A DNA stretch of 64,000 nucleotides from an uncultured delta proteobacterium (GTDB lineage Bacteria > Myxococcota_A > Polyangia > Haliangiales > Haliangiaceae): positions 221,845 to 285,844 of the forward strand of contig CAVXTW010000015.1 in the NCBI GenBank assembly GCA_963764695.1, in the 5' to 3' direction. Below the pieces are notes generated by a model, which had not been told where the DNA came from, ran no database searches, and worked only from the letters and a program-made list of their open reading frames with translations. The translations under genes and the position numbers were made by a program. Below, piece by piece: positions 1 through 52,041 of this stretch; positions within the stretch are counted from its first letter, which is position 1, and the number at the start of each line of letters is the position of its first letter.

Positions 1-1376
<1,376 letters not shown>

Positions 1377-1607
1377 GCACCCCTCGTCCGAGCGACGGAT
1401 TGTAGCCCAGGCGACCTTTCCCGTCACCGTCACCAGAGATGGGACGTTCGACACCGCCCCCAGGTTTCATCGACTCTTGCCGCGGCCGGTCAGATGTGCC
1501 CCGGAGTGCGACAGCATTGCGGCATCTCGATGGATTTCGTCTCGTGATACCGTGGGTCGGATGGGGCCCACGGCTGTTCGGGTCTGGACCGGCGCAGGGG
1601 GGAAGCG

Positions 1608-2588
1608 GTGATGACGCGGTGGCGGCACGGCGTGATTCTGGGGGTCTGCGTGGCGTTGATCCTCGCGCTGGCGGTGGAATCGGCCGAGGCGAGGAGGCGG
1701 CGCCGGGCTCGCCGCTCGCGCCCGCAGCCGGTGGTGCCGGCCCTGACCATCGACGGCCTGCCCAATGTCCGCTCCGGCTCGGCGCTGGCCATCGACATGG
1801 ACACGAACACCATCGTCTACGGCAAGAACCCGGACACGGTGCGGGCCATCGCGTCGACCGGGAAGATCTTCGTGGCCCTGCTCGCGCGGCGGCGCGGCAT
1901 CGACCTGGACGGCGTCACCGAGATCACGATGGACGACGTGCACTACGCGCGCGGCGGCTCGCGCACGCACCTCGATCTGCGCCGCAGCTTCCGCAACCAC
2001 GATCTGCTGCGCGCCATGCTGATCGCGTCGGACAACCGGGCGGTGACGGCGGTGGGCCGCGCTGTCGGGCTGACCCCGGAGCAGCTGGTGCGCGAGATGA
2101 ACGGGCTCGCGCTCGACCTCGGGCTCAAGCGCACCACGTTCGTCGACCCGACCGGGCTCAACGGCAACTGGTCAACGGCGCGCGAGATGGCGCGGGCCCT
2201 GGCCGCCGCGCTGCGCGATCCGGTGCTGGCCGAAATTCTGGCCACGCGATACGCCAGCGTGAGCACGGTCGGCGAGGGCCGCGTGCGCACCATCCACTAC
2301 TCCAACACAAACCGCGTGCTGCACCGCAACGGGATGCGCGTGCTGGGCGGCAAGACCGGCTACACGCGTCCTGCCGGATATTGCCTGGTCACCGGTGTCG
2401 AGTTGAACGGACGTCGTCTAGCGTTCGTGTTCCTCGGCGGCGACGGTGAGCTGACCCGGTTCGCCGATTTCAACAGGGTGGTCGGGTGGATGGGCGGCAG
2501 CGGCGGAGGCGGCGGAGGCGGCGGCAGCGGGCCGGACGTCGCGGTCGGCGCGGCGGCGATGCAAATGAAAGCCGAAGACTCCCGCTGA
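1608..2588 (+). CDS. D-alanyl-D-alanine carboxypeptidase (peptidase S11, PBP5/DacA-like)
   Basis: Signal peptide, then SxxK (ASTGK), SxN (SDN) and KTG (GGKTGYT) active-site motifs, and a Gly-rich C-terminus. Confidence 0.8.
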   Translation: MMTRWRHGVILGVCVALILALAVESAEARRRRRARRSRPQPVVPALTIDGLPNVRSGSALAIDMDTNTIVYGKNPDTVRAIASTGKIFVALLARRRGIDLDGVTEITMDDVHYARGGSRTHLDLRRSFRNHDLLRAMLIASDNRAVTAVGRAVGLTPEQLVREMNGLALDLGLKRTTFVDPTGLNGNWSTAREMARALAAALRDPVLAEILATRYASVSTVGEGRVRTIHYSNTNRVLHRNGMRVLGGKTGYTRPAGYCLVTGVELNGRRLAFVFLGGDGELTRFADFNRVVGWMGGSGGGGGGGGSGPDVAVGAAAMQMKAEDSR

Positions 2589-2733
2589 TGAACCCGGAGC
2601 GTCGGGCGATGATGCGGGTATCCACTGGAGGTACTCATGCAGCCTCGCTTGACGCTCGGTTCGACTCGGATTCTCTCTCTCCCTCGCGCTCGGCCTGGTC
2701 GGGGTCGCGGCGGCGCCGGCCGGCGCCCAGCGC

Positions 2734-3498
2734 ATGCCGGACATGGCCACGCTCGACCGGGGTGACGGCATCTCGCGCATCGGGCTCGATTTCGGGGCCA
2801 CGTTCGTCGATGACTCCGCCGATGACGACGCGGCCATGCGCTTCGACATCTTCGGCCAGTTCGTCAGCTGGCAGGGCTTCGGCATCTACGGGTCGCTGCC
2901 CATCGCCCGCTCGGTGACCGACGGGGACGACACCACCGCGATCGGAAACTTCGATGTCGGCGCTCTGTATGTGATCGAGAGCCCGGCGCTGTCGCTCGTG
3001 TTCCGCGGCGGCGTGGCGCTGCCGACGGCCGACGACGACGCCGACGGATTCATCACCAACTACTTCGCCAGCTGGTCGCGGCTGACCGACGCAGTCCAGG
3101 TGATCCCGAACGTGACGTACATGCGGCTCGGCTTCTCGCCGCTGTTTCACGCCAGCAACCTGTTCGTGCGCGCCGACGTGGGCTTCGACCTGGCCGTGGC
3201 CGAGGAGGACGACAACCTCGGGCTGGCCCCGGATACGCTGTTCCGGCTCAACGTGGGCGGCGGCATCGATTTCGGCTCGGTCGCGCTCATGGCCGAGCTG
3301 GTCAACCTGGCCACCACCGACGACCTCCAGTTCGACGTCGGCGACGAGGAAGAGGACTTCATCCACACCTTCGCGGTGAGCGCGCGCTTCATGGGGACGA
3401 CCATGCAGCCGTACGTCACCTTCGGCATGCCGATCGACACCTACGGGCTGGACACGGTCAACTTCTTCCTCGGCGCGGGGCTGCAAGCGCGGCTGTGA
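2734..3498 (+). CDS. Hypothetical acidic secreted protein, possibly an outer-membrane beta-barrel
   Basis: 254-aa ORF with alternating hydrophobic residues. A signal-peptide-like stretch (LGFSLSLALGLVGVAAAPAGAQR) lies in frame just upstream (2653..2733) but has no canonical start, so the true start is uncertain. Confidence 0.4.
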   Translation: MPDMATLDRGDGISRIGLDFGATFVDDSADDDAAMRFDIFGQFVSWQGFGIYGSLPIARSVTDGDDTTAIGNFDVGALYVIESPALSLVFRGGVALPTADDDADGFITNYFASWSRLTDAVQVIPNVTYMRLGFSPLFHASNLFVRADVGFDLAVAEEDDNLGLAPDTLFRLNVGGGIDFGSVALMAELVNLATTDDLQFDVGDEEEDFIHTFAVSARFMGTTMQPYVTFGMPIDTYGLDTVNFFLGAGLQARL

Positions 3499-3533
3499 TC
3501 GACCGGGCGTGAGCGCGCGGCCGTGATCGGCCC

Positions 3534-5073
3534 ATGGCGGTGCTACAGTGCGCTGCCATGGGCTGGTCGCGTCGCGAGGTGCTGGCCGCGCTGGCCGCGG
3601 CCGGCGCCGCACCCGGATGGAGCGCGCTCTTGAGCGCGTGTGGCGGGGCGCGGCCGGCGCCGGCCGTCGTGCCGCGGGAGCCGGTCGCCGCCGAGACCGT
3701 CGCCGGGCTGCGCGATCAGCTGCGCCAGGTCGCGGCTGACCTGGGCCGGCGCTTCCGCTCCGTCGCGGTGCGGGCCGAGCTGGGGCGGGCGACGCGCGCG
3801 GTGGTCGAGCCGGAGGAGCGCGGCTTCGATCAGCGCGGGCGGTCGAGCCTGGTCCTGGCCGGGTTCGATGGCGCGGGCTGGTTCGAGCAGGCGACGTCGG
3901 ATTCTGTCGCGAGATGGAGTAGCGGCGGCGGCGGCGGCGCTGAGGGCGCGGGCGGTGCGGCGGACCATCGTGCCTCGGGCGGTGGCGCCGGCGGGGGGAG
4001 CAGCGAAGGTCGCGGCTGAGCGAGGTCAAGCTCGGCATCGATCCGCGCGACAAGCCGATCGGCGACTGGCTCGAGCGCGCCGGCGCGTCTGCAAGAGCGG
4101 GCGGCCAAGGTGGGCGGCAGCCGACTGGTGTACCGCGCGACCGCCGTCGAGGTGGACGACAGCGACGTCATGTTTCATCGGCGATGGACGCGACCTGGCC
4201 CAGCGCCTCGTGCGCACGCAGGCGCGGGTGCTGTTTCTGGCCTGGACGGGAGCGATGCTGGCGGCGGAGGAGGCGACCGCATCGGGCGCGCTCGGCCTCG
4301 AGGGCGCCGACATCTCCGGTGGCGAGATCGAGCGCGCCGCCGAGGGCGCCCTGACTCTTCTGACAAGCTCGCAGATGGAGGCCGGCACGCGCGAGCTGCT
4401 GCTCGATCCGTCGGTGGCCGCCCTGCTGATCGGGTGTGGCGTCGCGCGCGGCTTCGAGGGAGACGCGTGGGTGCGCGGCGCGCGCGCGGAGACCATGCAG
4501 GATAGAGCGGGCGCGGCCCAGGCGGTGACCCTGCACGACGATGCGACCGCGGGCCGCGCCTATGGCGGCTACCGGTTCGACGACGAGGGCTTTCCGGCCG
4601 CCCCGCTGGCGCTGATCGAGCGCGGCGTGGTGCGCGGCCCGCTTTGCGACGCGGCCGCGGCGTCGGCGCTGCGCCGTCCTCGCACCGGACACGGTCGGCG
4701 AGTCGGCCCGCTCGATGCGGTCGAGCCGCGCCCCTCGCACCTCGTGCTGGCGCCAGGGACGCGAGCGAGAGACGATCTGATCGCCGCGGTCAACGGACAG
4801 GGCTATCTGATCGAGAGCGGCGTGGACGGCAGCGGCGATCCGGTATCGTGGCGGGCGGCGGTGCGCGCGCGGAGGGCGCGAGAGATCGCGCGCGGCCGCC
4901 TGACCGGGCGCGTGTACGGGCCGGTCGTGGTGGCCGGCGACGTGCCTGCCCTGCTCGGCGCGGTGCGCGGCATCGACAAGGGCGTGCAGGCGTTCGGCTG
5001 GCGCGAGCGGGGCGCGGCCGTTTCGGTGGCGACGCCGTCGGTGCTCACGCGCGGCTGGGTGGGCGTCGAATGA
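3534..5073 (+). CDS. TldD/PmbA-family metallopeptidase with a twin-arginine (Tat) signal; appears disrupted by about 4 frameshifts
   Basis: N-terminus MGWSRREVLAALAAAGAAPGWSALLSAC (RR motif). Protein-like text switches frames at roughly 3900, 4020, 4090 and 4180. The C-terminal half (GGYRFDDEGFPAAPLALIERGVV...) is the conserved TldD/PmbA C-domain, and no HExxxH motif is seen. Confidence 0.6.
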
Positions 5074-5156
5074 CCGAGGTGTTCGGGTGCGCGAAAGCGG
5101 CCGTGTCGGTGGCGACGCCGTCGGTGCTCACGCGCGGCCGGGTGGGCGTCGAATGA
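5012..5156 (+). repeat. Direct near-perfect tandem duplication (~62 bp units, 83-bp period) of the 3' end of the first TldD/PmbA gene, including its stop codon
   Basis: gcggccgtttcggtggcgacgccgtcggtgctcacgcgcggctgggtgggcgtcgaatga at 5012..5073 is repeated at 5095..5156 with 2 mismatches. Confidence 0.8.
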
Positions 5157-5172
5157 TCGATCGGAGGCCGGC

Positions 5173-6540
5173 GTGGCGGTGACGGTCGAGCGGCTGGTGC
5201 GGCTGCTCGACGCCGCGGCCGGCGTCGACGAGTGGATCGCGGTCGAGTCGCGGGTGCGCAGCGTGTCGCGCGCGAGCGGGGCGCGGCCGGTGCGCAGCGA
5301 AGGCGAGGTGGTGTCGCTGAGCGCCGTCATCCTGCGCGACAGCGAGCAGGGTCGCGGCAGCGCGCGGCTGTGGCTCGACGGTGAGGACGCGGACGAGGCG
5401 CGGGCGCAGCGGCTCATCGCCATGGCCTCCGAGCGCGCCGCCCTCACCCTCGGTCCGGCCTGGACGCTGCCGGCGCCGGCCGCACCCGCGCAGGTGACGG
5501 TCGCCGATGCCGAGCTCGAGCGCGATCCGACCGGCGCGGTCGACCGGGCCATGGCGCAGGTCAACGCGGCGCAGGGCCGGCTGGCCGCGATCGGCCGCGC
5601 GCGCATCGAGGTGCAGGTGCACTCGCACGCGGCCGAGACCAGCCGCGGGTTCGCCAGCCAGTACACCGCGACCGCGGCGCTCTACGATCTGGCAGCCAGT
5701 GTGGGTGGCGAGAGCGGGTCGCCGCTCGAGCGCGTGCATGGATGCGTGCGCAGCGCGGCGCGGCTGTCGCTCCACCGGCGCATCGCCGACGCGGCCCGCG
5801 CCGCGTCGCGGCGCAAGGGAGCGCGGCCGCTCCAGCCCGGGCGCTACGATCTGCTGCTGCGGCCGGGCGCGATCGCCGGGCCGGGCGCCGGGCTCGATCG
5901 ATCGGCCGGCGCGGCCGCCTACGGCTGGTTCGCACCGCTGGTGGCCCACGCCGACGCGGAGCGGGTGCGCCTCGGGATCAGCCATCACCGGCCGGGCCAG
6001 CCGGTGTTCGCGGCTGGGGGCGGCGAGGGTGTCAGGCCCGGTGCCGCGCCGCGCGCCGGCGATGCCGATGTGTTCACGCTGGCGAGCGACGGCACCATCG
6101 ACTTCGGCCTGCTGAGCGCGCCGTTCGGCGAGCTGGGCGAGCCGGTGCGCCGCTTCGAGATCGTGCGCGACGGAGTGGCCGCCGGGCTGTCGCTCGATCA
6201 CCGCGAGGCCGCGCTGGCCCACACCACGCCGAACGGCGGCGTGCGCAACCTGGTACTGGACGCGGGCCGGACACCTGCAGCCGGGCTGGCCGCGCCGGGC
6301 CAGCGGCCGCTGCTCGACGTCGCGCATCTTTCCTGGATCGACTGCGACCCGCGCAGCGGCGCGCTGACCGCCGGCATCGGGGCGGCGACCGTGCGCGGCG
6401 CGGCGGTGACGGGCGGCCTGGTGGTCGGCAACGCGTTCGACCTGCTCGGCCGGGCGCGCCTGTCGGCGGAGACCGGCACCCTGGCCTGGTACCGCGGGCC
6501 GATCGCCATCCGCATCGACGGCGTGGACGTCACGGCTTGA
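5173..6540 (+). CDS. TldD/PmbA-family protein (second member of the pair)
   Basis: 455-aa intact ORF starting at a GTG, immediately after the duplicated 3' end of the preceding TldD-like gene. The C-terminal region fits the PmbA/TldD fold (GLVVGNAFDLLGRA...). Confidence 0.7.
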   Translation: MAVTVERLVRLLDAAAGVDEWIAVESRVRSVSRASGARPVRSEGEVVSLSAVILRDSEQGRGSARLWLDGEDADEARAQRLIAMASERAALTLGPAWTLPAPAAPAQVTVADAELERDPTGAVDRAMAQVNAAQGRLAAIGRARIEVQVHSHAAETSRGFASQYTATAALYDLAASVGGESGSPLERVHGCVRSAARLSLHRRIADAARAASRRKGARPLQPGRYDLLLRPGAIAGPGAGLDRSAGAAAYGWFAPLVAHADAERVRLGISHHRPGQPVFAAGGGEGVRPGAAPRAGDADVFTLASDGTIDFGLLSAPFGELGEPVRRFEIVRDGVAAGLSLDHREAALAHTTPNGGVRNLVLDAGRTPAAGLAAPGQRPLLDVAHLSWIDCDPRSGALTAGIGAATVRGAAVTGGLVVGNAFDLLGRARLSAETGTLAWYRGPIAIRIDGVDVTA

Positions 6541-6618
6541 GTCTCGACCGACCGGGCGATCAAGGGTGGCGGCTCGGCGGCCAGGCCAGCGACGCCTCAG
6601 CGGCTCAGCGGCGGCGGC

Positions 6619-7521
6619 TCACCCGGCCACGGCCGCGACCTCGCCGCGTCGAGCCGCGCCCGGCGACACGCCGATGAAGCGCTTGAACGCGCGACTGAAC
6701 GCCGCCTCCGATCGATAGCCGAGCCGGCTCGCCATCTCGCCGACCCCGAACGTCTCCTCGCGCAGCCAGTTCATGGCCACGTGCATGCGCCAGCGGGCCA
6801 GGTAGTGCATGACCGGCTCACCGACCAGCTGCGTGAAGCGCGCCGCGAACGCGGACCGCGACATCCCGACCTCGGCGGCCAGCGTCGACACAGTCCACGG
6901 CCGCGCCGGCTCGCGATGGATGGCCGCGATGGCGCGCCCGATCTGTCGGTCTTGCAGCGCGCCCAGCCATCCGGTCTGCGCGGCCGGGTCCCGCTCGATC
7001 CAGGAGCGAATCGCCTGGATGACCAGGATGTCGGCCAGCCGCGTGATGACCGTCTCGCCGCCGGGCCGCAGCTCCCTTGCCTCGGCCGCCATCAGCCGCA
7101 GCGTGCTCTGCAGCCACTCCGTCTGCGGCGAGCTCGACGCCTGCACGTGGATCATGCGCGGCAACAGCGCGATCAGATGATGCGCCGCCGGATGATCGAA
7201 CCTGACCGCACCGCACACCAGGCTGGTCGGCGCGCCGCCTCCGCCGTGGCGCAGCACCGCGTAGCGATCGCTGACATGCTCGTGCCGCAGATCGTCAACC
7301 CGCGGCGCCGTCACCCCCGGCTCGCTGAGCAGGCGGTGCCCGCGCCCATGCGGCACAAGCGCCAGGTCACCCGGCTCGAGCGCGGCCCGCTCGCCGCCAT
7401 CCACCTCGAGCCAGCAGCGACCGGTGGTCAGGACATGAAAGCTGAGGCACCCCGGCCGCGCCGGCATCGCCAGCCCCCAAGGCGCCGACATCTCCGACCG
7501 GCAATAGAAGGTGCCGGTCAT
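6619..7521 (-). CDS. AraC-family transcriptional regulator with an N-terminal cupin domain
   Basis: Minus ORF. The internal start MTGTFYCRSE at 7521 is favoured over the ORF-track start at 7809, which would overlap the next gene. C-terminal AraC HTH region (...SRAFKRFIGVSPG...). Divergent from the 7738 gene. Confidence 0.8.
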   Translation of the reverse strand: MTGTFYCRSEMSAPWGLAMPARPGCLSFHVLTTGRCWLEVDGGERAALEPGDLALVPHGRGHRLLSEPGVTAPRVDDLRHEHVSDRYAVLRHGGGGAPTSLVCGAVRFDHPAAHHLIALLPRMIHVQASSSPQTEWLQSTLRLMAAEARELRPGGETVITRLADILVIQAIRSWIERDPAAQTGWLGALQDRQIGRAIAAIHREPARPWTVSTLAAEVGMSRSAFAARFTQLVGEPVMHYLARWRMHVAMNWLREETFGVGEMASRLGYRSEAAFSRAFKRFIGVSPGAARRGEVAAVAG

Positions 7522-7737
7522 GCGCAGAAAGTGAAGCGCCTCGCCCAGCGGATCCTCGGTACGCGGCGCCTCCAGCACGCCGCCAGTATCGCGCTGACGC
7601 CCGCTCCTGCGTCCAGCCAGCCTGGACGCCCGAGCAAGAACCCGCGACGCCCGGTCATTGATGCGCCTGCCGACCAGCCCGATAGTGGACGCACTGCGGC
7701 GCAGCTCGCAGGTCGAATCCAAGAAGGAGCAAACACA

Positions 7738-8379
7738 ATGCGAATCGGGATCCTGGGTACCGGCGACGTCGGCAAGGCACTGGCCAACGCCTTCCTGGCA
7801 CTCGGTCACGACGTGAAGATGGGCTCGCGCGAGCCCGCCAACCCGAAGGCCACGGCGTGGGCGACCGAGGCTGGCTCGAAGGCGTCAGCCGGCACCTTCG
7901 CCGACGCCGCCGAGTTCGGCGAGCTGGTCGTCCTGGCCACTCTCGGCGCCGCCGCCGACAGCGTCCTCCGCGCCGCCGGCCCCGACCGCCTGGCCGGCAA
8001 GATCGTCATCGACACCACCAACCCCCTCGACATGTCTGCCGGCTTCCCGAAGCTCTCCGTCGGCCACACCGACTCCGGCGGCGAGCAGGTCCAGCGCCTG
8101 GCTCCCGACGCCCACGTCGTGAAGGCGTTCAACACCGTCGGCAACCCCCTCATGTTCCGCCCCGACCTGCCGGGCGGCCCCCCCGACATGTTCATCTGCG
8201 GCAATGACGACGACGCCAAGAAGAAAGTATCGGCTCTACTGGCCGACTTCGGCTGGGGCGTCGTCGACATCGGCGGCATCGAGGGCTCCCGCCACCTCGA
8301 GCCCATGTGCATCGTCTGGGTCGCCCACGGCTTCCGCTCCGGCTCGTGGAACCACGCCTTCAAGCTCCTGCGCAAGTGA
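7738..8379 (+). CDS. NAD(P)-binding oxidoreductase, NADPH-dependent F420 reductase (NpdG)-like
   Basis: RBS aaggagc 8 nt upstream of the ATG. N-terminal Rossmann motif MRIGILGTGDVGKALA. 213 aa. Confidence 0.75.
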   Translation: MRIGILGTGDVGKALANAFLALGHDVKMGSREPANPKATAWATEAGSKASAGTFADAAEFGELVVLATLGAAADSVLRAAGPDRLAGKIVIDTTNPLDMSAGFPKLSVGHTDSGGEQVQRLAPDAHVVKAFNTVGNPLMFRPDLPGGPPDMFICGNDDDAKKKVSALLADFGWGVVDIGGIEGSRHLEPMCIVWVAHGFRSGSWNHAFKLLRK

Positions 8380-9677
8380 TCGCCCGCCGGCCGATGAAGG
8401 CTACGCGCCGCGGCTCGCGCTCACCTTCGCGACCACGCCATCGCTCGAAGCCCCGCGCATTGCTTCGCGCGAGGACTCGTGCGTGAACATGGCTCCTCGA
8501 GGAGAGAGGTGGCGAGCTGGTCGCATACTCCCGACTGCTCGCTCCATGACCGAGATCCATTGGTGCTTGGCCAGTCGCGCTCTGCGGACTCGACCTCGAA
8601 GCGAAGCTCCTCGCCGAACCAGAATTGACGCGACTGTGTTGGGCCCGCGCCCGCTCTCAAGCCGAGCGAGCTCGATCTAAGTTGGCCAAGGTCGTCTGTT
8701 TCGACGGTAGCGATGGAGCACGCAAAATGACCCGTGGCGTGGCGTTACTCGGAGAATCGCGCCGTCATCATTCGCTCCTCGCTATTGGTCCTCCTTGATG
8801 ATGAAAATCGGTAGAGCATGCTGCGATCATTGTCGCACTCTTGTGCGCCCGTCGTCGTGAGAAGCTCCAGAGTCCCCTTGTCCTGTGCGTCCTCGATGGC
8901 CTTGGTGCTGTCAAGAACGCACGGAAAGTTGTAAGTCGCCAGGTGAGCGGCGCGCTCAGGACGGCCACGACGGTATCTTGGTCCGTGGAAGAAAGGTTCT
9001 GAACCACTCAGCGAGCCGAAGCGTTTCCTCTGGTGAGTCTACTCCCTGGCGGGTTCCGTATTGCGTCAATGATTCCCTGGCCGTGATGATAACGGCAAGC
9101 TTGATCGCCTCAATGAACTCGCGTTGATTCATCGATCGAATAATCCGGGTAGAGTCATTTGTTCAGGTCAATCAGCTCCTGCAATGCATCGGCGGGGGCA
9201 TCCGTGGACTGGCGGAGATTGCGAATCCCTCGCGCGAGCAAGATTCGTGCTGTTCCATTGTACGGTCCCTTCAGGGCGGGGAGCGGCAAGTGCTCTCGAG
9301 TAGGGAGCGCGATGGCCGGACCGCTGCTGCGATCGTAACCAGGCACAACCTGTTTCATTGCATGCCTGCTGGCCCTCGTGATGGTGGGCGAGATCATCGC
9401 CGACCCTGGAAACACGCTGCACTCCTCGAATCGCCCGACAGGTAGGGCACGACGCCGCGGCCAGCGGCAGCGGGCCTGCCGACCGTCCGAGAGCGGCAAG
9501 GTCGAAGAGCGCGGACCCGCCGGCCTCCCGCCATGCGGCCCTGGGCAGCGAAGTAGAGCGTGCCGACGAACCGGAAGAGAGCCTGCGAGGCTGTCGGCGG
9601 TGTGAGCAGCGGCTACTGTACCGTTCAGGCATTCGACCAGGCAGCCGCTCCGGCAGGGACACGTGCGGACCAACCAG
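8380..9677. other. Lower-GC (~55-58%), ORF-poor region immediately 3' of the RHS toxin tip; candidate immunity gene(s) or orphan toxin remnants
   Basis: GC visibly drops relative to the ~70% flanks. Only short, weak ORFs (e.g. minus 9155..9400 ending ...ILLARGIRNLRQSTDAPADALQELIDLNK, minus 8421..8660). Position matches where Rhs immunity genes normally sit. Confidence 0.4.
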
Positions 9678-10097
9678 CTACCGGCCCGGACTCGATAGTC
9701 TCTCTGGCGATCTGACGCATCCAAGCCCGGAGTGGCTCACGAGTTCATTGGGCATACACGCCGGACAAGCGGGATATCCCGAGGAGATGCCGCTAGAGTG
9801 GCCAACAGCAGCGGACCCTGACCCCATCGCCCATGGCTGCGCTCCACCCCTGACCCAGTTGAGACGATATCGGTGGGATTGTTGTCGTCCGAGCTCGGGG
9901 TGCCGGACGACCCGCCGTCCCAAGCAAGTCTCTGCATGATGCTCCCGACGGCGTTGCGAGGCCACGCTACCTACGTCCGGGCAGCCAGCGCAGACGGCGC
10001 GCAACGTGAAGTCGGTCATCGAGCCGAGCAACCCGCCGCCGCCGCCGTCCCCGCTGGTCACGTTCGAGATGAAATCGACGATGTCATCCCAGATGGA
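9678..10097 (-). other. C-terminal toxin (hypervariable) domain of the RHS protein, downstream of the DPxG autoproteolysis motif
   Basis: ~140 aa after IDPSGF (SIWDDIVDFISNVTSGDGGGGG...). GC falls across this segment. No recognisable toxin family by eye. Confidence 0.5.
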
Positions 10098-13000
10098 AAA
10101 TCCGCTCGGGTCGATGAAGGTGGTCGGGTTGTTCCAGGCGTAGCTGTAGCGGTTGTGGCTCTGGCTGAAGAGTGGGGCCTGGACGAAGGGATCGGGCGTG
10201 AGGAAGTGGCGGGCCTTCGGGTCGTAGATGCGGCCTTTCATGTTGATCAGGCCGATCTCGTCGTCGTGCTCGTGGCCGGTGTAGCCCTCGTGCGGGCCGC
10301 CGTGGAGGTCGTCGTCGTAGGGCGTATACGTCGGCTTGATGCGGCGACCCCAGGGGTCGTAGAAGAGCTCCGCGAGGAAGCCTGAGATTGCCCGGCCGGC
10401 CCGGTTGGTGACGAGGGTGGTCGAGCCCTGAAGGTCGATGTGCAGGTATGAGACCGGCGTGTTGGTGATCTGCCCGTCGGGGGCCTGGATTCGATTGACC
10501 TGAGCGACGATGCGTCCCTCGGCCACGATGTTGTGTAGATTCTCGGCCTCTCCGCCGGCCGCGGCCCGGATGCGGCGTTCGAACAGACCACCCACGTACA
10601 GCGTCGATTGGTTGTCGTCGCGCTTGAGCACTCGCGTGCCGTGCGCGTCGTAGGCATAGAAGGTCAGCCATGGGCCACCTTCGCCGATGCCGCCGGTCAA
10701 CAGCGTCGGCAGGCCCCAGCTGTTGTACTCGATGGTGCGGTTGGGGCCGCTTGTCTGTCGCCCCGCGGCGTCGTAGCCGTACGAGATCGTGTTACGCCGG
10801 GTCATGGCGTGCGGAGGCGCGTTCTCGCCGTACCCGTACGTGGCGTTCTGGTTGGTGGGCGCGCCTGTCACCACCTCGCTCTCGAGCTTGCCGACGACGT
10901 CGTAGTCATACGATGCCGTGAGCTGGGCCGTTCCGTTGCTGGCGCTCCACCGCTTCAGGCGATCGAGCTCGTCATACGCGTACGTATCGGTGCGCCCGTG
11001 AAACAGGTCAGATCGGCTGATGACGTTGCGATTGAGGTCGTAGTCGTAGGCGAGCTGGCCGAGGCGACCGATGGTGCCGGGGCCCATGACGTCGCGCGTG
11101 CGCAGGAGCCCGACCTCGTCGTATTCATTCGTGGTGACGACGCCGTTGCCGTACCGCTCGCTGGTCAGCTGACCGGCGACGTTGCGGTCCTCCGCGGTCC
11201 AGTAGGGCTGGTCGGTACCCGCATCCCTGATCTGAAAGAGGTAGCCCTGCGCGTTGTAGGCATGGGCGATGGTCAGGCGGCCAGCGCCCGCGGGCGCGCC
11301 GGGAAGAACCGGATAGGTGATGGTCGACGGGCGCCCGATGTCGTCGTAGCCATAGTCGATGTCGTACGATGTGCCTTCGATGTTCCATCGCGTCGAGGAC
11401 GGCCGCCCGATCGGATCGTAGTCGTAGGCAATGGTGACCCCATCGGGGCTCGTGGAGCTGGCCGGCTTGCCGATGCCATTGGTGCGGGTGTCCCAGTTGT
11501 GAATGGCCAGGCCGTCGGGTGAGTTGACCTGCTCGATGCGACCCAGGGCGTCGAACTGGTACTCGGTGACGGCGTCGTTTCCATCAATCTCCTCGGTCGG
11601 CTCGCCGAAGGCGTTGTAGCTCGAGATCGTGGTGCCGGCGCTCGGGTCCACGAGCACCGTACGACGCCCGAGCTTGTCGTACTCCAGCGCCTGGCCGGTT
11701 CCGTCGGGCGCAATCACGTCGCTCACGAGAGCGAACGGGTCGTACTTGAACCGGGTGACGAGCCACGCTGTTGACTCCGGGTCGTCTTCGTGGCGCGAAT
11801 CGATGAGCCCGTCCGCTCTCTCGAGGACATAGCTGTGGTTGCCCTCGGCATCGTGCGTGTGGCTCTCGAGCCCGATGTACTCGTGGCTCACGGTCGCTTC
11901 GTCTGGCGCCGTGCTCGCGAGAAGCCGATCGAGGCCATCGTGGACGTAGGTCGTGTTCTGGATCGGGCCCTCCGAACCTGTCGCGAACGGTCGCGACACA
12001 GAGCGGATGCGCCCGAGGCGATCGTATGCGGTGCGAACCGTGCTGAAGCCGCTGATGAAGGCCGGAATGGTTTGATCGACCGGTCGGCCGAGCTCGTCCA
12101 TCACGACGGTCCTTGCCGCGAGGACTCCGCCGGATCCATCCGGCACCGTCAGGACATGGATGAGCGGGCCGAACGTCGCGTATCGCTCGAACCCGCCATC
12201 GGCATGGTTGACCTCGCGCAAGCGGCCGAAGCGGTCGTACTTCATGGTGGCCGGGACGATGCCGTTGGCGTCGGTGGTGTCGAGAACGACTCCGAGGCCG
12301 GTGTGGACGGTCACCGAGGTCGTCTGATCGAGCGCGTTGGTGATGGTCGCCGGGTAGAGGCCGAGGCTGTCGTAGGTGAGACTGGTCGTGCGAGTCTCCT
12401 GATCCTCCCCCTCCGCATTGGCGACGGTGACGGACGATACGTTGCCGAAGCCGTCGTACGCGTAGCTGGTGGTGAGGAGAAACTCGGCATCACCCGGCTC
12501 GACGATGACATCCTTGATGTTGCCGTTGTCGTGCGTGTCGAAGCCGACCTGTCGGGTCTGGCACTTGTTCTCGGGACGCGTGCACGACGTCGAGGTGCGC
12601 GTCCGCGGCAATGCCAGGAGCCAGTTCTCGAAGTCCTGCTCGTAGGTCATGGTTTCGACCTGGTCCGAGCCCGGCGCCGCCGTGGTGACCTGCTTCGGGC
12701 TCTGGAACTCGTCGTACAGCAACGACGTGGTCTGCGAATGGAGCGCGGTCCACGCCCCGCTCGGGCCCACCTTCTCGCGGTCCGAGACGGACACGCTGTC
12801 GAGCTGCGTGAACCACGTGCCGGGCTGCGTGCCGAGTTGAAACTTGAGCGCCCGCGCCGTCGTTCGCTCGTAGAACACCGGCGAGCCCTCGCGCGAACCC
12901 GACGTGACGGTGTACGTGATCTGGCGCGGCTGGCCCGCGAAGGGATAGACGTACGTCGTGAACCCGTTGCCGTCCGGGTAGTGCTGGGCGGTGTGATTGT

Positions 13001-15668
13001 CGAACTGCACGACGGTGAGGGCATCGCCCCGCTCCACGTCGCGGATGTCGTGCTGTTCGAACCCCAGCCACCCGCGTCCGCGCAGGTCGGCCCGCGCCCC
13101 CCAGTAGCGGTGCGTGAACTGGCGCCACGGCGACTTTGGATCCACGCCGTTGGCCAGCCAGTGGGAGGACACGATGCTGCCGCCCCGGTGCGGACACGTG
13201 AGCGGATAGGAGCAGTTGACGAGGGCTCGGCCGTGCACGGACGCGTTCGCCAGGGTCGTGTACTCGACCTCGGCGCGTACCCCGATGCCGGCTACCTTGA
13301 CGCGATAGAGCTTGTCCGGGATGTCGCCGACCCGCTTGTGCAGTCGAAGGAAGCTGGTCGTCGTGTCCGGGGTGTCCGACCAGACCTGGGCGATGTCCAT
13401 GAGACCGTCGCCGTTGAAGTCCAGCGGCTGGATACCGGAATACGGAAGCACCCAGCTCGCGTTCGTGGCGATGTTCATGCCGCGTCGATCCCAGGCCCGG
13501 CCGGTCCATGTGTAGAGCTGGATGCCACGTGCGTGATCGCCCGTGTTCTCGGGTGTCCCCGCGTGGATGAGCAGGATGTCGTCGGCGCCATCGCCGGTGA
13601 AGTCGACGACGCGCACGCGGAGGTTGTCGTCCGCCACCGGGGGGCAGTCGTCGATCTCGTCATTGGGGGGACTCGGGGGGACCGTCCAGCAGCCTCGAGA
13701 AGCCAGTCCCGCTCCCCAGCTGCACCTTCAACCCCGTGCACGGGTACACGGCGTCTTCGACACCGTCGCCGTTGATGTCCGCGAAGTGAAGGTTGCGGCG
13801 GTCCAGGTTCTCCGGCTCGCGAAGGAAAGGCAGATTGAACTCGAATGACCCACTCGTCCATCTCACCGTCGTCGTTCATCTTGATGGCCCCGTACCCGGG
13901 GTCGGACGGGGTCCACAGGAGCAGCCGGGGATTCGCGCCGGTGGCCGCGACGCTGCGAAACTGGTGGTCGAAGCGGGGCGATGTCGTCCCAGGTTTCGAG
14001 CGGTCCGTGCCAGTTGATTCCATCCACGTAAGGGCCGAATCCGGTCGGCAGATTCAGGCGGTACGTCCACTGCAGCCGGTTGTCTGGCTCCTGGCCGGCA
14101 GCGCGCACGATGCGCGGTCCGACGTAGTCGGGCAGACCATTGCCGTCGAGATCGACGAAGTATCCGGCCCACAGTCCACCGAGCCGACCGGACTCTCGCA
14201 TTCTCGTGAATATCTGAATGTCGGTGAAGACCTGCTCGTAGGTCGATCCGGTCGATCGATACAGCGAGAACTGCGTGATGTCGTCGAGCACCGGAACCTC
14301 GACCATGAGATCGAGCCGTCCGTCTCGATCGAAGTCGATGGGCCGCACCCTGGGCTCCTCGTCTGGACCGAGGCTCGGAATGCCCGCGTCCCGCGGGTCG
14401 CCGAATCCGTCGCCGGTACTGAAGCGCAGCTTCCAGTCGTTCTCCATGTCTCGATAGATGAGATCGTCGAGGCCGTCGCCGTTGATGTCGCCAGGAATGT
14501 AGTAGCGACCGTGGCGGGCCGCCTGCGCCACGTCGGTGACGTCGGTGTCGATGCGCTCGTAGGTGGCGGAGGTGCCGGTGGGTCCAGTCGAACTCCAGCG
14601 CGTTCAGGCAGACGGGCGGTTCACCGTCCGCCGGATCCCCGCCGTCGCATTCGGTGACGCTGCGAAGCTGACTGCGACCGGTCATGCCGCCGTTCACGTA
14701 GCGCAGCGTGTACTCGCGCAACACCCCCGCTCCATCGCTGATCCGGATCGTGCTGAGGCGACGCTCCCACGCCATGTGAATGCTTCCGGGCTCGTCGGTT
14801 CCGGGATGGAAGCTGTCGACCTTGTCGGTCCTGTCTTCGTATCCGAACTCGATCGTGCGATCGGGCCCGTAGGTGATCCGCTCCGGCACCATGTCCACGG
14901 CCCACTGGCCGTCATCGCTCTCCACTGTCGAATACTCGACAGACGATGGCATTTCCGTTGCGGTCTTCGACACTGGTCAGCGCCCACGCGGCGGTCAGCC
15001 GATCGATCGTGGGTTCGAAATGCGGATCTTCATCATCGAATCGCGAGGCATGGAGCCCGTATGCCTTGACCGGATCGTAGGTCATGATCCGGCCGTCCTT
15101 GGTCCAGACCTTGAACTGGCGCGGCGGCCGTTCCGGTCCGTCCGAGCTGTAGGCTCGGACGCGCGCGAAGGTCTCGCGCTCGGTGCGGTAGTCCTGCTCC
15201 TCGCTCCACTCCAGGTCGGTCGGCCGGAGGCGTTCCCCGTCCAGGCAGTAGGCGTTCGTGCGGAGGAAGTCGGGGTTCTTGCTTCCGCCGTCCTGGGCCC
15301 ACGTGCGCGCGCATGGCGCGATGGACGACAGGCCGGCCGAGAGCGACCAGCCGACACCGACGAGGCCGTTGCCGCCCTGGGAGTTGTAATGAAGGGCGAG
15401 CCCGGGCTCGAGGCCGCCGCGACCGTCCGGCACCCATAGCGGGAGGTGGTACTCCGCCGCGCCGTTGTGATTCACCGTGAGCGTGCCCTCGGTCCAGCCG
15501 GAGCTTGGCTGCGTGTCGACGATGCCGCCCGGCGGCGGCGCGAGAGCGCGCCGCGGCGGAGTCGCCCGCTCCAGTGGAGCCTTCGCTGTCGTGGAGCGAG
15601 GACGCGCTCTCGTCCGACAGGCACGCGGCCACCAGCGCGAGGCCAAAGACGGCCACTCGGCTCGTCAT
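9678..15668 (-). CDS. Large SpvB/FG-GAP/RHS-repeat polymorphic toxin lipoprotein (Tc-toxin BC-fusion-like), ~2000 aa; N-terminal third carries about 5 frameshifts
   Basis: Start ATG at 15668 with lipoprotein signal MTSRVAVFGLALVAACLS. SpvB/TcC N-terminal signature (GAAEYHLPLWVPDGRGGLEPGLALHYNSQGGNGLVGVGWSLS) at ~15500..14950, a TcdB-mid-N-like stretch at 14950..14580, and FG-GAP repeats (DINGDGLDD, IDFDRDGRLD, VDLDGNGLPD) at 14560..13660. The intact 1319-aa ORF 9678..13637 holds many YD/RHS repeats and the RHS core end NNPTTFIDPSGF at ~10115..10098. Frame changes at ~15560, ~14950, ~14580 (a ccc homopolymer), ~13866 and ~13650. Confidence 0.85.
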
Positions 15669-46989: not shown

Positions 46990-49900
46990 TCAGCGCCGGC
47001 GGCGGACCGTGACCACCACGGTGTCCGGGGCGCTTGGCAGGCCGAGCGAGTCGGTCACCACCAGCCTGAAGTTGAACTGCCGATCGGACGGCACGATCGG
47101 CGCGATGAAGAACGGCGTGGCCGTGTTCGGCAGGAACAGGATGACCCCCGCGGGCGCCGTCCACGCGAAGCGCAGCGAGTCGCCGTCCGGATCGCTCCCC
47201 GAGCCGCGCAGGAACACGATGTCGCCCGTCCGCACCGTGATGTCGGCTCCCGCATTCGCGACAGGCGGGCGGTTCACATTCGTGACGCTGACATCGACCG
47301 TCGCCGGCGGGCTGGCCAGCCCGCCGGGATCGCGCACCACCAGGGTGAAGCGCAGGACCCGGCCGGAGCGACCGACCTCGGGCGCGATGAACGTCGGCCG
47401 CGCCGCGGTCGGGCTGCTCAGCGTGATCCCGGCCGGCGCGGCCCACGCGTAGGTCAGCGCGTCCCCGTCCGGATCGCTGCTGCCGGTCCCGTCGAGCGTC
47501 GCCGTTGTCCGCTCTCCCACGGTCTGCGGCGGGCCGGCGCTGGCCACCGGCGGGCGGTTCACGGCGGCGTTGGTGACGGTCACCGCCACCGTGGCCGGGC
47601 TCGACGCGCTCACCGCATCGCGAACGACCAGCGAGAAGGTGAGGGTCGCGCCGGCGGGGCCCACCTCCGGCGCGGTGAAGGTCGGCTGCGCGGCGGTCGC
47701 GCTCGACAGCGCGATGCCGGCCGGTGCGGTCCACTCGTACGTGAGCGGCAGGTCGCCGTCCGGATCGCTGCTGGCCGTCCCGTCGAGGGTCACGACGGTC
47801 CGCTCGACGACGGTCTGCGGCGGGCCGGCGTTCGCGACCGGCGGGCGATTCACGTTGCGCACGTGGATCACCGTCGTCGCGGCCGGGCTGGTCGCCAGCC
47901 CGTCGGACACGACCAGCCTGAAGGCGACATCGATCCCGGTGACAACGGCCTCCGGCGCGACGAACGTGGGCCGGGCCGCGGTCGCGCTGGACAGCGTGAC
48001 CGGAGGCCCGGCGATCTGCGTCCACTGATAGGTCAGCGAATCGTCCGGGTCCGGATCCACCGACCCGGTCCCGTCGACGGTCACCGTGCTGCCCTCGTCC
48101 ACGGTCTGCGCCGGGCCGGCGGAGGCCACCGGCGGGCGGTTGACGTTGACCACGGTCACCGTCGTGAGCGCCGCGGCGCTGTCGGACGAGCCGTCGCTCA
48201 CCACGAGCTGAAACACCAGCTGCGACGAGCCCGGGTCGCGCAACACCGGCGGCGCGAAGAAGCGCGGACCGACCGCGGCAGGGTCGTCGAGCGTGACCGC
48301 GGGGCCGGAGACCTGCGACCATCGATAGGTCAGCGGCTCGCCGTCCGGGTCGATGCTGGCGGAGGCGTCGAGGAACACGGTCATCGGCGGGAAGGCTGGC
48401 CCCGGGCCGAGCTCCGGCACCGTCTGGTCGGCGCCCGCGTTCGCGACCGGCGGGGCGTTGCAGGTCGCCGACTGCGGGACGAGCCCGGGGAACGGCGGCG
48501 CGAGCAGCCCGCTGACCTGAATGTCGTCAATCTCCCAGCCCGGCGACGAGACCCCCGGATCGGACGCGACCCGGAAGCGGATCCGCACGACCCTTCCGCC
48601 GGCGCTGGTGCCGAGGTTGACCGACGCCGCCCGCATGGACGGATAGCCGGCGCTGGTGCCGGTGAAGGCCGGGCGCCCGGCGAGCGGGTTGCCGGCTGCG
48701 AGAAGGCCGGTGTAGGCCACGCCGCTGCCGGGAAGCGCGGAGACGTCGGTCCAGGTGGCGCCGTCGTCGGTCGAACACCTCGATGACGCCACCGTCGAAG
48801 TTGAGGTTGTTGACCGCGTCGCGCTCGAGGGAGTGGCGATGCAGGAACGAGAGCACGAGCGCCTGGCCGGGTGCGACCGCGAGCCGCGGCGAGGACAGCT
48901 CCGCCGTCGCTGCCACGCTGGCCGAGCGGCACTGGTAGGCGTGGCCGCCGGGCGAGGTGGAGACCTTTGTCCACAGCGCGTCGGGCGGCGACGAGGGGAG
49001 CGACGAGGTCTGGCCCCACACGGTCGAACAGCTCGGCGTTGTCGACGTTCGACTGGCCGGGCAGCTCGTCGGCGTTGCCGGCGAACTGGTAGGTGACCGG
49101 CGCGGCCTCGCCGGCGCCCGCGTCCGGCGTTGCCACGGCGATGGAGATCGTTGTGTCGGCGGCGAGCCCGCTGGCGGCCACGCGGACCGTCGCCTCCGCG
49201 GTGGCGGCGCGCGCCGTGGCCGGGAAGGTGATCGCGTCGCCGTCGGGGAAGACGATGCCGGGTGTTGTCGAGCTGACCGTCGCGCTCAGGGCCGGAGCGT
49301 CCGCGTTGCCGACATTGCGGAAGGCCACGCGCAGGGTGCCGGTCTCGCCGTCGTCGAGGATGCCGTCAGCGGCGCACACCGCGGTGTCGTCGTCGAGCAG
49401 GCGCGCGCCGGTCTGTTGCACGGCCGGGCCGAACGCGAAGCTCTCCACGACCGGCGTGTTCGTGTTCTCGCCGCGCGGCGGCGCGATGGCGTTGACGCCG
49501 GCGCCGCGCCTCGCGAACGCCGCCCCGCACACCTGGTAGTCGGCCGGGTCGCCCAGCAGGGCGGTGAGCAGAAGCGCGTCGCGCGCCTCGAGCAGGGTCG
49601 GGTTGGCGGGCGTCACCTTGTAGGCGGCGACGACGTAGTCGCGCATGCGGTCGCGCGCCTGGGCGAAGGTCAGCCGCGGGGCGGGGCCGACCGTGTCGCG
49701 CAGGAGGCCCGCGTAGCACTCCCACAGCATCGTGGCCCACACGGTGCCGGTGGCGTGCACCTGCGAGTTGACGCCGATGAAGTTTGGCGGCGGGCTGGCG
49801 GGGAGCGGATTGACGTCGGAGATGTGCCTGAACGTCATCGGGTTCTTCGTCATGTCCGTCGAGTACGGATAGCGGCGGATGCCGAAGTAGTACGAGTTCG

Positions 49901-52041
49901 GGTCGCTGCTGGTCGCGTACGCGCCCATCGCGTACGTCCCCTGCCAGCTGTCGTTGAGAGGACTGGCGGTGTCCTCCTCGCGCGCCGTGACGAGCAGGGC
50001 GTGGAAGTCGGCCCAGCCCTCGCCGAGTCCGCGCGCCATGTTGTTCTGCAGGCCGGCCGCGTCGAAGATGAGGCGGTTGGAGATGTAGTGGCCCCACTCG
50101 TGGGCGACGACCTGGTTGTCGATGTCGCCGTCGAGCAGCTTCACGCGCCGCACCAGCTGTCCGGTCACCGCCGGGCCGGCAGCGAGCGCGCCGCGGAAAC
50201 GGTCGCCGTCGGCCAGGTTGAGCGAGACGGCCCCGAATCGTGATCGGGACGGTGGGGGTGCCGCCCATGGCCGGCGGGATGGTCGGGTTCGCCGAGGCGG
50301 CGACGTTGGCGATGATGACACCGGCGCCGCCGGCGGCCTGGACCTGCTGCGCCTTGCCGGCGAAGCCGTTGCACGCCGCCGGCCCGCCGCGGTCGACGAG
50401 GACGATCTTGCCGGCGTAGTCCCCGACCAGCGGGGCGCAGGCGTCCACCGGGCTGGCCCGCGCGATGTCGGCGGACAGCTCGAAGTTGAGCGGCCCGAAC
50501 ACCGCGGTGCCGACACTGGTGAAGTCGCCGGCAAGCTCGGGCGGCGCGGCGACGGTGACCCGGAGCTCGATCGGCTTGGTCCACAGGTACATCTGCATGC
50601 GCGGGCGTCCGCCGTCGGCCGGCGTCGACATGTTCGCGTTGTTGAAGCCACCCGAGTCCTGGGCCTCGGCGCGCAGCACGTCCCCCTCCACGCCGCCGCG
50701 GCCGAAGTTGGACAGCTGCGCGTTGCCGGCCGCCTCGGTGAAGCCGGCCGCGTAGTACCAGTCGTGAAACCAGTTGTTGTCGTAGAAGAGCTGCGTGACC
50801 GCGGCGAGGCGCTGCACCGCGTTCTCGTCGGCGCCCAGCTCGGTGTCGAAGGTGTAGTCGAAGACGCCGGGCGCCGAGGCGACGCCGCGGAGATCCGCCG
50901 TACCAGCCAGGAACCCGTCGGGCGCAGCGAGGTCGAGGTAGGCGTCCACGTTGTTGCCGAGCGTCTCGGTCGCTCCGACCGGCAGCCATGGATCGTCGAC
51001 CCCGACCGCGGTGAGGCTCGAGAGCGTCACCAGCTGGGCCGGGACGAAGAGCGGCTGGAACCCGTCGGCCAGACCGGTCGGGTGCGGCGTGACAGCGGTC
51101 CCGTGCGGCCCGTCCCACGGGGTGAACAGGCCGCTGGCGTCGGCGTATGCGCGATACGTGACCGGATTGTCGTACGCGGTCAGGTCGTTGCGCCACAGCA
51201 CGCGGCCATCTCCCGCGTCGATCACGTAGGCCACGTGGCGCGCGCGGTGCGCCGCGTCGTCGCCGAGGTCGGCCTCGACGTAGTAGGCCGGCACCAGCGA
51301 GTCCGGCGCAATGCGAAAGAAGATCGGCTTCGCGCGAGTCGGCGCGGCGTCGGCGGCGGCCGCGACGCGGGTGGCTGCTGCCGGACGCAGGCGAGCGGCC
51401 TGGTATCCGCCGGCGGCAGGCGCGGCTGCTTCGAAATCGGAAGCAGCGATGGCCGCGCCGGCCAGGTCGCTCATGGCCGCCGTGATGGCGGCGGCGGAGC
51501 CCGACGCGAACGCGTCGCGCGCGCGGCGGCCGGGCTGCTTGGCGGCCGCGGGGAGGTCGCCGGTGACGAACCCGGTCAGCGCCACGGCGTCGAGATTGCG
51601 ATCCATGGCCACCGACAGCTGCTCGCCGAACACCTCGACGCCGTCGACCCGCCGGCCGAAGCGCGCGATGATCGCGCCGCGTCCTGTGTCGTGCAGCTCG
51701 CGCAGGTCGAGGGCGCCGGCCTGCTCCGGCGCGAGGCGGTAGTAGCGGGCGAAGCTGACCACGTGCGCGCGCGCCGCCTCGGCAGGACTGGCGACGCCGG
51801 CCGCGATGCGCGGACGCGCGGGCGCATCGGCCCACAGGAAGGTCGGCGCCCTCGCGATCGCGTCGGTGTGGGCGACGCGGCCGGTGGCTGGCGGCGATGA
51901 AGGTGCTGCGGTCGGTGTCGAGCCGGACACGACCGGACCCGATGGCCCCTGCCCCGACGGCGACGGCGGATCGTCCCGATCGCCCGCGCACGCCGCCAGC
52001 GCACCCATTCCCAACGCGACCAGCACGAGCCTCTTCGTCAT
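46990..52041 (-). CDS. Very large secreted M36 (fungalysin-like) metalloprotease lipoprotein with a PA domain and five C-terminal PKD-like repeats; about 3 frameshifts
   Basis: ATG at 52041 (MTKRLVLVALGMGALAACAG lipobox). FTP/PA-like N-region, real to ~50260. The catalytic HEWGHYISNRL ... GEGWADF lies in a second frame (ORF 48381..50651). An Asp-box STDDGATWTDV then 5 tandem ~95-aa repeats (NVNRPPVANAGP.QTV.E...LDGTGSSDPDGD.LTY.WT.P.G) run in ORF 46990..48792. Frame changes at ~50250, ~49030 and ~48800. Confidence 0.8.
46993..48440 (-). repeat. Five tandem PKD/K319L-like Ig-fold repeat units (protein-coding repeats, ~285 bp each)
   Basis: Repeated NVNRPPVA(N/S)AGP..QTV...LDGT(G/A)SSDPDGD..LTY(E/A)W pattern within the protease C-terminus. 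Confidence 0.7.

Follow-up and report, generated by a model that had tools for sequence, protein, structure and literature searches.

We analysed two adjacent genes in a 64,000-nt stretch of contig CAVXTW010000015.1 from an uncultured delta proteobacterium of the Haliangiaceae (positions 221,845 to 285,844; this whole stretch is called the window below). Both genes lie on the plus strand and resemble TldD and TldE (PmbA), which in E. coli form a heterodimeric metalloprotease (PDB 5NJ5) that processes microcin B17 and CcdA41 (PMC5810440). Gene 1, at 3558..5073, is TldD-like and has no single reading frame as it stands, three reading frames being required to trace it. Gene 2, at 5173..6540, is PmbA/TldE-like and is an intact open reading frame (ORF) of 455 aa without a signal peptide. 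The product of gene 1 fails the defining tests of a catalytic TldD, its N-terminus carries the motifs of an exported lipoprotein, and the end of the gene is duplicated in tandem at the junction with gene 2.

Membership of both proteins in the TldD/PmbA fold family was established in several ways. The Pfam model of the PmbA_TldD C-terminal domain (PF19289) matches gene 1 with E=1.9e-30 and gene 2 with E=3.9e-7, the latter at 29.9 bits against a cut-off of 22. An intact ortholog of gene 1 encodes 505 aa and is present as an uninterrupted 505-codon gene in L001 and L002, which come from two JGI samples (compared loci are designated by L numbers). Using phmmer, this ortholog found E. coli TldD (5nj5_A) at 6.5e-15. 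Its AlphaFold2 model, with a predicted local distance difference test score (pLDDT) of 89.3, had 5nj5_A as its best Foldseek match (E=1.6e-36) and template modelling (TM) scores of 0.74-0.80 to TldD chains. No NCBIfam model matches gene 2; a profile of the gene 2 family found PmbA 3qtd (1.3e-8) and 5nj5_B (7.6e-6) in the PDB. The AlphaFold2 model of gene 2 (pLDDT 91.8) gave Foldseek TM scores of 0.69-0.78 to TldE/PmbA chains, compared with 0.63-0.69 to TldD chains. Since gene 2 is closer to TldE/PmbA and gene 1 to TldD, the pair consists of a TldD-like and a TldE-like protein. A first-pass annotation of this DNA had proposed a TldD/PmbA pair, to be checked against PF01523. The family assignment is borne out by PF19289 for both genes and by the phmmer, profile and Foldseek results, whereas PF01523 matched neither protein in the Pfam search.

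The metal ligands of E. coli TldD are C454 and the two His residues of the HExxxH motif, H262 and H267, with E263 as the general base (PMC5810440). In the phmmer alignment, HEAVGH of E. coli TldD lies opposite GRGVAR of the L001 ortholog and C454 opposite F, so that G, R, R and F stand at the positions of H262, E263, H267 and C454. In the window the codons for G-C-G-V-A-R occupy the HExxxH position (4432..4449, plus strand), as placed by phmmer, by a MAFFT alignment with canonical TldDs and by a comparison of 87 loci. The alignments likewise place a Phe codon (4993..4995, plus strand) at the third metal ligand, which is Cys454 in E. coli TldD (PMC5810440). Neither HExxxH nor the Cys occurs in any of the 34 clade proteins examined; HEACGH and CGK are retained in the four canonical TldDs aligned with them by MAFFT. 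The third-ligand position is variable in the clade and is never Cys or Asp where the column aligns. Among the 87 loci, approximately 35 related ones (nearly all labelled Myxococcota) are without HExxxH and have variable replacements, and HE[SAC]FGHGVE.D is retained in the 52 loci that belong to Chloroflexota, Bacillota, Thermotogota and Planctomycetia. In an exhaustive profile search, where 644 representatives reached E<=1e-30, HExxxH was missing from approximately 95 of the 150 best-ranked representatives of clusters formed at 50% identity.

The FDDEG and GxGRR (G-x-G-R-R) motifs are conserved in the gene 1 clade, and many Arg, Asp and Glu residues, including R189, R216, R433, R440 and R442, are invariant and specific to it. 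Against the NCBIfam TldD equivalog NF008006 the gene 1 protein scores 52 bits, the cut-off being 513. Source annotations call these proteins 'metallopeptidase TldD-related' or 'predicted Zn-dependent protease', and the activity part of these labels is probably wrong. Judged from its residues, an exported complex without metal ligands would be unlikely to cut peptides; the conserved cleft and the clade-specific invariant arginines suggest that it may bind an anionic or peptide ligand.

The N-terminus of gene 1 contains a signal of the twin-arginine translocation (Tat) type, SRREVL, followed by a lipobox, L-S-A-C (3558..3641, plus strand, with the Cys codon at 3639-3641). It reads WSRREVL, then a hydrophobic segment, AALAAAGAA, and then LSAC. 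The twin-arginine (RR) motif (S/T/N-R-R-E/D-V/L-L) is present in 33 of the 34 clade members, as is the aligned Cys (Cys28, about 22 residues past the RR). Both features are also found in related, mostly Myxococcota, loci, and both are absent from the N-termini of the HExxxH-bearing loci of the genome scan. In that scan, where the metal site is lost, the RR and lipoprotein signal has been gained and a fixed neighbourhood of DD-peptidase and kinase genes is present. At least 53 of the approximately 95 representatives without HExxxH have a clear RR motif, many of the others being truncated or having RRDW or RRQW variants that lie outside the search pattern. The N-terminus of gene 2 is a structural helix of the fold and carries no signal. 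The twin-arginine signal reported for gene 1 by the first-pass annotation is therefore present, with a lipobox Cys besides. That annotation had also proposed export of a folded heterodimer-like protease. Co-export of a folded pair is reasonable given the conserved RR on gene 1 and the lack of a signal on gene 2, but the protease part fails, since gene 1 and its whole clade are without HExxxH and the Cys ligand and the gene 2 family has no conserved His or Cys.

Two further observations were made on these N-termini. In the representative search, P0143, P0146, P0157, P0168 and P0180 combine an N-terminal RR motif (SRRRFL and similar) with an intact HESFGH; by their motifs, exported and presumably active TldD-like proteases also exist. 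Upstream of gene 1, immediately 5' of the MGWSRRE start, lies a ~23-nt element, GGTGCTACAGTGCGCNGCCATGG (3538-3560), that hardly varies among the window, L001, L004, L005, L103 and L006; the other intergenic sequence is not conserved. Alternative upstream starts of gene 1 are an ATG at 3534 and a GTG at 3540, and the element reflects either translation from GTG 3540 (M-L-Q-C-A-A-M-G-W...) or a regulatory element. We considered the conserved TACAGT as a -10 promoter element of gene 1 and rejected it, because its counterpart in L008, TAGAAT, is only 2 nt from the ATG.

In order to locate the frame breaks in gene 1, the window was aligned to the intact 505-aa L001 ortholog. Relative to that gene there are exactly four +1 insertions, at 3902, 4019, 4080 and 4176, together with two in-frame 3-nt deletions; the earlier count of about four frame changes was thus accurate. 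The insertion at 3902 (GGATCTG to GGATTCTG, plus strand) is common to L005, which is 98.45% identical to the window. The other three, at approximately 4019, 4080 and 4176 (4019..4176, plus strand), are specific to the window. A metagenome scan for the 3902 allele (CGACGTCGGATN{0,1}CTGTCGCG) returned 38 stretches, 37 of them unrelated. The sole relative, L103 (84% nucleotide identity), has the uninterrupted allele and a single-copy junction, and the scan contained no sufficiently close relative. Programmed frameshifting at 3902 was rejected, the sequence showing neither a slippery heptamer nor a known +1 site.

Frame switches occur elsewhere in the window as well. A codon-position hidden Markov model identified roughly a dozen further same-strand switches away from stop codons, at 13666-15527, 19490, 22593, 48769-50236, 57554 and 62740-63803. 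One of these switches was confirmed: a gene for an M36 (fungalysin) metallopeptidase with an inserted PA domain (48381-52041, minus strand) is split over two frames near 50236, with profile positions 42-170 in one ORF, positions 174-368 in another, and PKD and cadherin-like domains in a third (46990-48792). An RHS-type toxin gene is fragmented above 13.6 kb. The window appears to be rich in frameshifts, a property to be expected of a long-read assembly that has not been polished. Between the window and L005 the ratio of nonsynonymous to synonymous substitution rates (omega, Nei-Gojobori) in gene 1 is 0.31, and deeper comparisons gave 0.21-0.24. A frameshift-rich window and purifying selection on gene 1 together make sequencing error the likelier cause of the frame breaks. 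We infer that the four breaks are probably errors of the assembly consensus and otherwise, at most, very recent decay.

Were they decay, gene 1 would have been genuinely pseudogenised, recently in the strain of the window and, via 3902, in L005, and the module would be in the course of being lost from this lineage. We regard this as possible but the less probable explanation. It would account for four insertions relative to intact orthologs, one of them common to an independent assembly, as well as for the locally raised number of derived substitutions that both strains show over 3985-4824, a nonsynonymous fraction in gene 1 above that of neighbouring genes, and two unusual A-ending codons beside the 3902 insertion. 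However, the omega between the strains is not near 1, gene 2 is intact in the window, the dozen or so other candidate frameshifts lie in unrelated genes, and L004 and L005, both ENA assemblies with records named 'contig_N', have frame breaks of their own. Synonymous divergence (dS) between the window and L005 over the region 1400-8400 also argues against it. The dS was 0.004 for the neighbouring S11 peptidase gene, 0.069 for gene 1 and 0.048 for the downstream AraC gene, and relaxed selection cannot cause the ~18-fold difference between gene 1 and S11. Differences between the two strains are concentrated in 3985-4824 and 5000-5300, and the derived changes are split equally between them. This equal split and the 18-fold range of dS point to a recombination mosaic rather than decay.

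It is improbable that the pair is a still-active exported peptidase with a non-canonical catalytic site. Such an enzyme would fit the conserved fold and its two retained motifs as well as the purifying selection on both genes (omega 0.11-0.36), and the five Tat-bearing homologs with intact HESFGH make exported active TldDs plausible. On the other hand, neither the gene 1 family, in its mature part, nor the gene 2 family has a conserved His or Cys, and the ligand replacements vary (G/R/H/D/V), as expected without catalytic constraint. In E. coli the H262A change abolishes the activity of TldD, and TldE, which is without these residues, is inactive (PMC5810440).

The repeat at the junction of the two genes was first delimited by an ungapped search, which found a direct repeat of 64 nt (5014-5077 versus 5097-5160) with 61 of 64 positions identical (95%) and a spacing of 83. 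Side-by-side reading with relatives showed that the real unit is approximately 89 nt, arranged head-to-tail. Copy 1 (4988..5076, plus strand) holds the genuine 3' end of gene 1, namely its final 27 codons and the stop TGA at 5071-5073, plus 3 more nt. Copy 2 (5077..5159, plus strand) is non-coding and decaying, with a 6-nt net deletion and 3 substitutions in the 64-nt core. The net loss of 6 nt lies near its 5' end, which is why the ungapped search shows only 64 nt. Copy 2 directly abuts copy 1 at 5076/5077, and each breakpoint has an AGG (4988-4990 and 5077-5079), the pattern that slippage or unequal exchange at a microhomology would leave.

The duplication is present in the window and in L001, L002, L003 and L005, and the junction is single-copy in L004, L103, L006 and L008. 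Because four other independent assemblies carry it, both chance and an artefact of the window assembly are excluded. Relatives at 88% nucleotide identity or lower are without it, and the distribution places its origin, as a single event, in the ancestor of a shallow sub-clade (at least ~90% nucleotide identity). Copy 2 has since changed differently in each lineage. L003 keeps it at full length (spacing 89) apart from a 2-nt deletion of its own, the window and L005 have lost about 6 nt near the 5' end, L005 has further indels, and L001 and L002 have a larger deletion. Decay that differs from lineage to lineage indicates a neutral scar, and we conclude that the duplication is an old, neutral, decaying one. 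L001 and L002 also carry a second, independent tandem duplication of 88 nt, 93% identical (L001 5874-6049), which takes in the gene 1 stop, the Shine-Dalgarno sequence and the beginning of gene 2 (~50 nt). Duplications seem to arise readily at this junction.

Owing to the first duplication the two genes are 99 nt apart, compared with about 16 nt before it. The start of gene 2 (M-A-V-T-V-E) is nevertheless unchanged, and its Shine-Dalgarno sequence, GGAGG (5163..5167, plus strand), lies 5 nt upstream of the GTG start, as it does in L004 and L103, where there is no duplication. Gaps in relatives without the duplication range from 14-16 nt (L103 and L004) to approximately 105-110 nt (L006). An effect on translational coupling is therefore unlikely, since gene 2 retains its start and GGAGG and gaps vary without the duplication. 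The first-pass annotation had described a repeat at 5012..5073 and 5095..5156, proposed that it may be a replication-slippage scar and held that it could alter coupling. The tandem duplication is real, with a longer unit, and a slippage-type origin agrees with the head-to-tail copies, the AGG microhomology and the absence from outgroups. The comparison of relatives that it had called for shows conservation in the close ones only, and the coupling effect is not supported.

We also considered that the duplicated segment might be functional. The duplication creates a 28-codon ORF (5070..5156, plus strand) whose ATG overlaps the gene 1 stop and which ends at the duplicated TGA, and this could serve as a translational relay or peptide; alternatively the segment could be a regulatory RNA or a maintained recombination hotspot. 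In each of four lineages an ORF runs from the gene 1 stop across the gap, ending shortly before the gene 2 start or extending into it, and the independent duplication in L001 and L002 is at the same junction. However, the bridging ORFs of the relatives encode unrelated peptides, with indels shifting the frame, and open frames of ~27 codons are expected by chance at 75% GC. Rfam gave no match over 3300-6800 at E<=1. A terminator and promoter scan gave no signal at the junction, its one hit being a weak hairpin within gene 1 (4207-4228), and the RNA fold of the junction was not significant (z=-1.9). Relatives at 84-88% nucleotide identity do without the duplication, and we consider a function very unlikely.

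The genes surrounding the pair form a conserved module. At the left edge of the window, which cuts the gene, is a Ser/Thr protein kinase (15..1376, minus strand), of which residues 1-458 of approximately 611 are present. The L001 kinase is 92% identical by tblastn, and Pkinase (Pfam) is recorded at this position in syntenic loci. The kinase is transcribed divergently from a gene for an S11 D-Ala-D-Ala carboxy/endopeptidase (1608..2588, plus strand; PF00768, E=4.6e-42), which opens the conserved plus-strand module. The S11 translation begins with a signal peptide, its STGK, SDN and KTG motifs (SxxK, SxN, KTG) are intact, and it scores 148 bits against the NCBIfam DD-endopeptidase model PRK11669, which is under the model cut-off. 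Next is a hypothetical secreted protein (2637..3498, plus strand), 286 aa long in relatives and found only in closer Kofleriaceae relatives, with no family match in Pfam, NCBIfam or a PDB sequence search. In the window a specific +1 insertion at 2660 (CTCGGTCGAC to CTCGGTTCGAC) removes its start and signal peptide. Downstream of gene 2, an AraC-family regulator with a Cupin_6 domain (6619..7593, minus strand) is a conserved neighbour in closer relatives.

The window and its close metagenomic relatives share the gene order kinase (-), S11 (+), 286-aa gene, gene 1, gene 2, AraC/Cupin_6 (-) and F420-type oxidoreductase. The arrangement of kinase, S11, gene 1 and gene 2 was found in 26 loci, reaching down to 31% identity in gene 1, and genes 1 and 2 are adjacent in all syntenic loci. 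Metagenomic relatives of gene 2 at 95%, 90% and 83% identity lie on contigs syntenic with the window. At the nucleotide level, L001 and L004 are 90.8% and 88.1% identical to the window, respectively, compared with the 98.45% of L005. The closest named relatives are metagenome-assembled genomes (MAGs) of Kofleriaceae, one of which, at 64% identity, is the best match among the matches listed in the genome scan. The matches listed there did not include the species of the window itself, and an exact search of the contig index for the gene 2 product gave no record. One homolog of gene 1, P0079, belongs to Haliangium ochraceum. The two genes make up a conserved module of Kofleriaceae/Haliangium-type Myxococcota.

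Some features of these loci stand apart from the module. L006, a Kofleriaceae MAG, has, downstream of the F420 oxidoreductase, a Peptidase_C39 gene of the bacteriocin-processing type and a 95-aa ORF (12825-13810, minus strand), neither of which is in the window. L019, labelled as a Solirubrobacteraceae MAG, shows the arrangement of kinase, S11 and dead TldD with an NRREVL...LGCG signal, an arrangement otherwise seen in Myxococcota loci, and is probably a mis-binned contig. In the window, 8377-15650 (minus strand) is occupied by a toxin gene of the RHS/YD-repeat type, whose N-terminal portion has FG-GAP and SpvB-like parts. Over its 3' tip and the sequence that follows (8377-9972) the GC content is lower (0.60) and no family is matched, which is what a variable toxin tip with an immunity gene would show.

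The first-pass annotation had linked the pair to the maturation or degradation of a peptide resembling those that are made on ribosomes and modified after translation (RiPPs), and had advised a check for a precursor gene; despite the family resemblance to the TldD/E that processes microcin B17 (PMC5810440), this can hardly be correct, as the catalytic motif is absent, the conserved module has no precursor gene and no room for one between its genes, and the conserved neighbours, among them the S11 DD-peptidase and the kinase, are envelope and signalling genes rather than RiPP enzymes.

We favour, with a probability of roughly 0.55, the reading that the pair is an exported, catalytically dead TldD/E-like module, that the junction repeat is a neutral scar and that the frame breaks are most likely errors. 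The products of genes 1 and 2 would fold and pair in the cytoplasm to give a TldD/E-like hollow heterodimer. The Tat system would then export the folded pair on the signal of gene 1, with the product of gene 2 hitch-hiking. The complex may be lipid-anchored, facing the periplasm, and could act there as a non-proteolytic shell with a peptide-binding or regulatory role, tied to the upstream S11 DD-peptidase and the divergent Ser/Thr kinase. The ~89-nt duplication would have arisen by slippage at the AGG microhomology in the ancestor of the sub-clade.

Several points weigh against this reading. No NCBIfam model, Tat or other, matches the N-terminal region of gene 1 at E<=0.1, and the Tat assignment consequently rests on the motif and its conservation. 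The pairing and joint export of the two proteins are deduced from gene adjacency and signals, and a role in the envelope or in peptidoglycan is suggested, with low confidence, by synteny alone. Strong purifying selection and the invariant Arg, Asp and Glu residues leave room for unrecognised catalytic or binding chemistry. As to the frame breaks, an insertion common to two assemblies that differ by 1.5%, such as that at 3902, is not expected of random error. The three window-specific insertions fall within 160 nt, whereas the window as a whole has about one candidate per 4 kb. Finally, the share of nonsynonymous changes is 20 of 47 changed codons in gene 1 compared with 6 of 37 in its neighbours.

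A more specific proposal, which we put forward only as a doubtful one, is that Myxococcota of the Kofleriaceae/Haliangium type converted the cytoplasmic TldD/E cage to a Tat-exported, lipid-anchored dead shell that binds peptidoglycan stem peptides or envelope proteins and takes part, with the S11 peptidase and the kinase, in cell-wall remodelling or sensing. If true, this would be a new role for the TldD/E fold. TldD/E is known as a cytoplasmic heterodimeric metalloprotease, and the clade described here, large and diversified, has lost every metal ligand. If confirmed, the module would represent a TldD/E cage turned into an exported pseudo-enzyme, and a candidate case of Tat hitch-hiking in Myxococcota. 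A literature search for TldD that is Tat-exported, periplasmic, myxobacterial or inactive found no relevant paper. Neither the duplication nor the frameshifts are out of the ordinary; their main lesson is to be wary of assembly quality and of inferring biology from repeats at gene junctions.

Compared with the E. coli TldD/E heterodimer, the window pair likewise has two paralogous subunits of the same fold, gene 1 corresponding to TldD and gene 2 to TldE/PmbA. It also keeps FDDEG and GxGRR and has a partner subunit without a metal site. It differs in that its TldD-like subunit has lost H262, E263, H267 and C454, and in that it carries a Tat signal and lipobox motif, the E. coli enzyme being cytoplasmic. 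The sequences are only some 20% identical, the score is a tenth of the NCBIfam equivalog cut-off, and the window genes are adjacent to each other and beside a DD-peptidase. The earlier TldE structures showed a hollow core, no recognisable catalytic site and no known activity (PMC5810440). The TldE/PmbA homodimers of P. aeruginosa (3QTD), T. maritima (TM0727, 1VL4), B. thetaiotaomicron (BT3649, 1VPB) and T. kodakarensis (6J6A) have the same fold as the window proteins and, like them, no recognisable catalytic site. In contrast to these, the window pair combines a TldD-derived subunit bearing an export signal with a PmbA-derived one. The HExxxH-bearing TldD homologs of Chloroflexota, Bacillota, Thermotogota and Planctomycetia (L015 and L020-L087) are the nearest relatives outside the clade (25-36% identity) and also have a PmbA-like gene directly downstream, but they keep HE[SAC]FGHGVE.D and are without the N-terminal RR and the S11/kinase neighbourhood. 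A functional analogy may be drawn with the degenerate LytM factors EnvC and NlpD, which are catalytically inactive homologs that regulate cell-wall hydrolases. Their fold is unrelated, and a regulatory effect of the window pair would follow by analogy only. The likeness would lie in an envelope-located enzyme fold that has lost its active site, with its gene, in our case, beside that of a peptidoglycan hydrolase.

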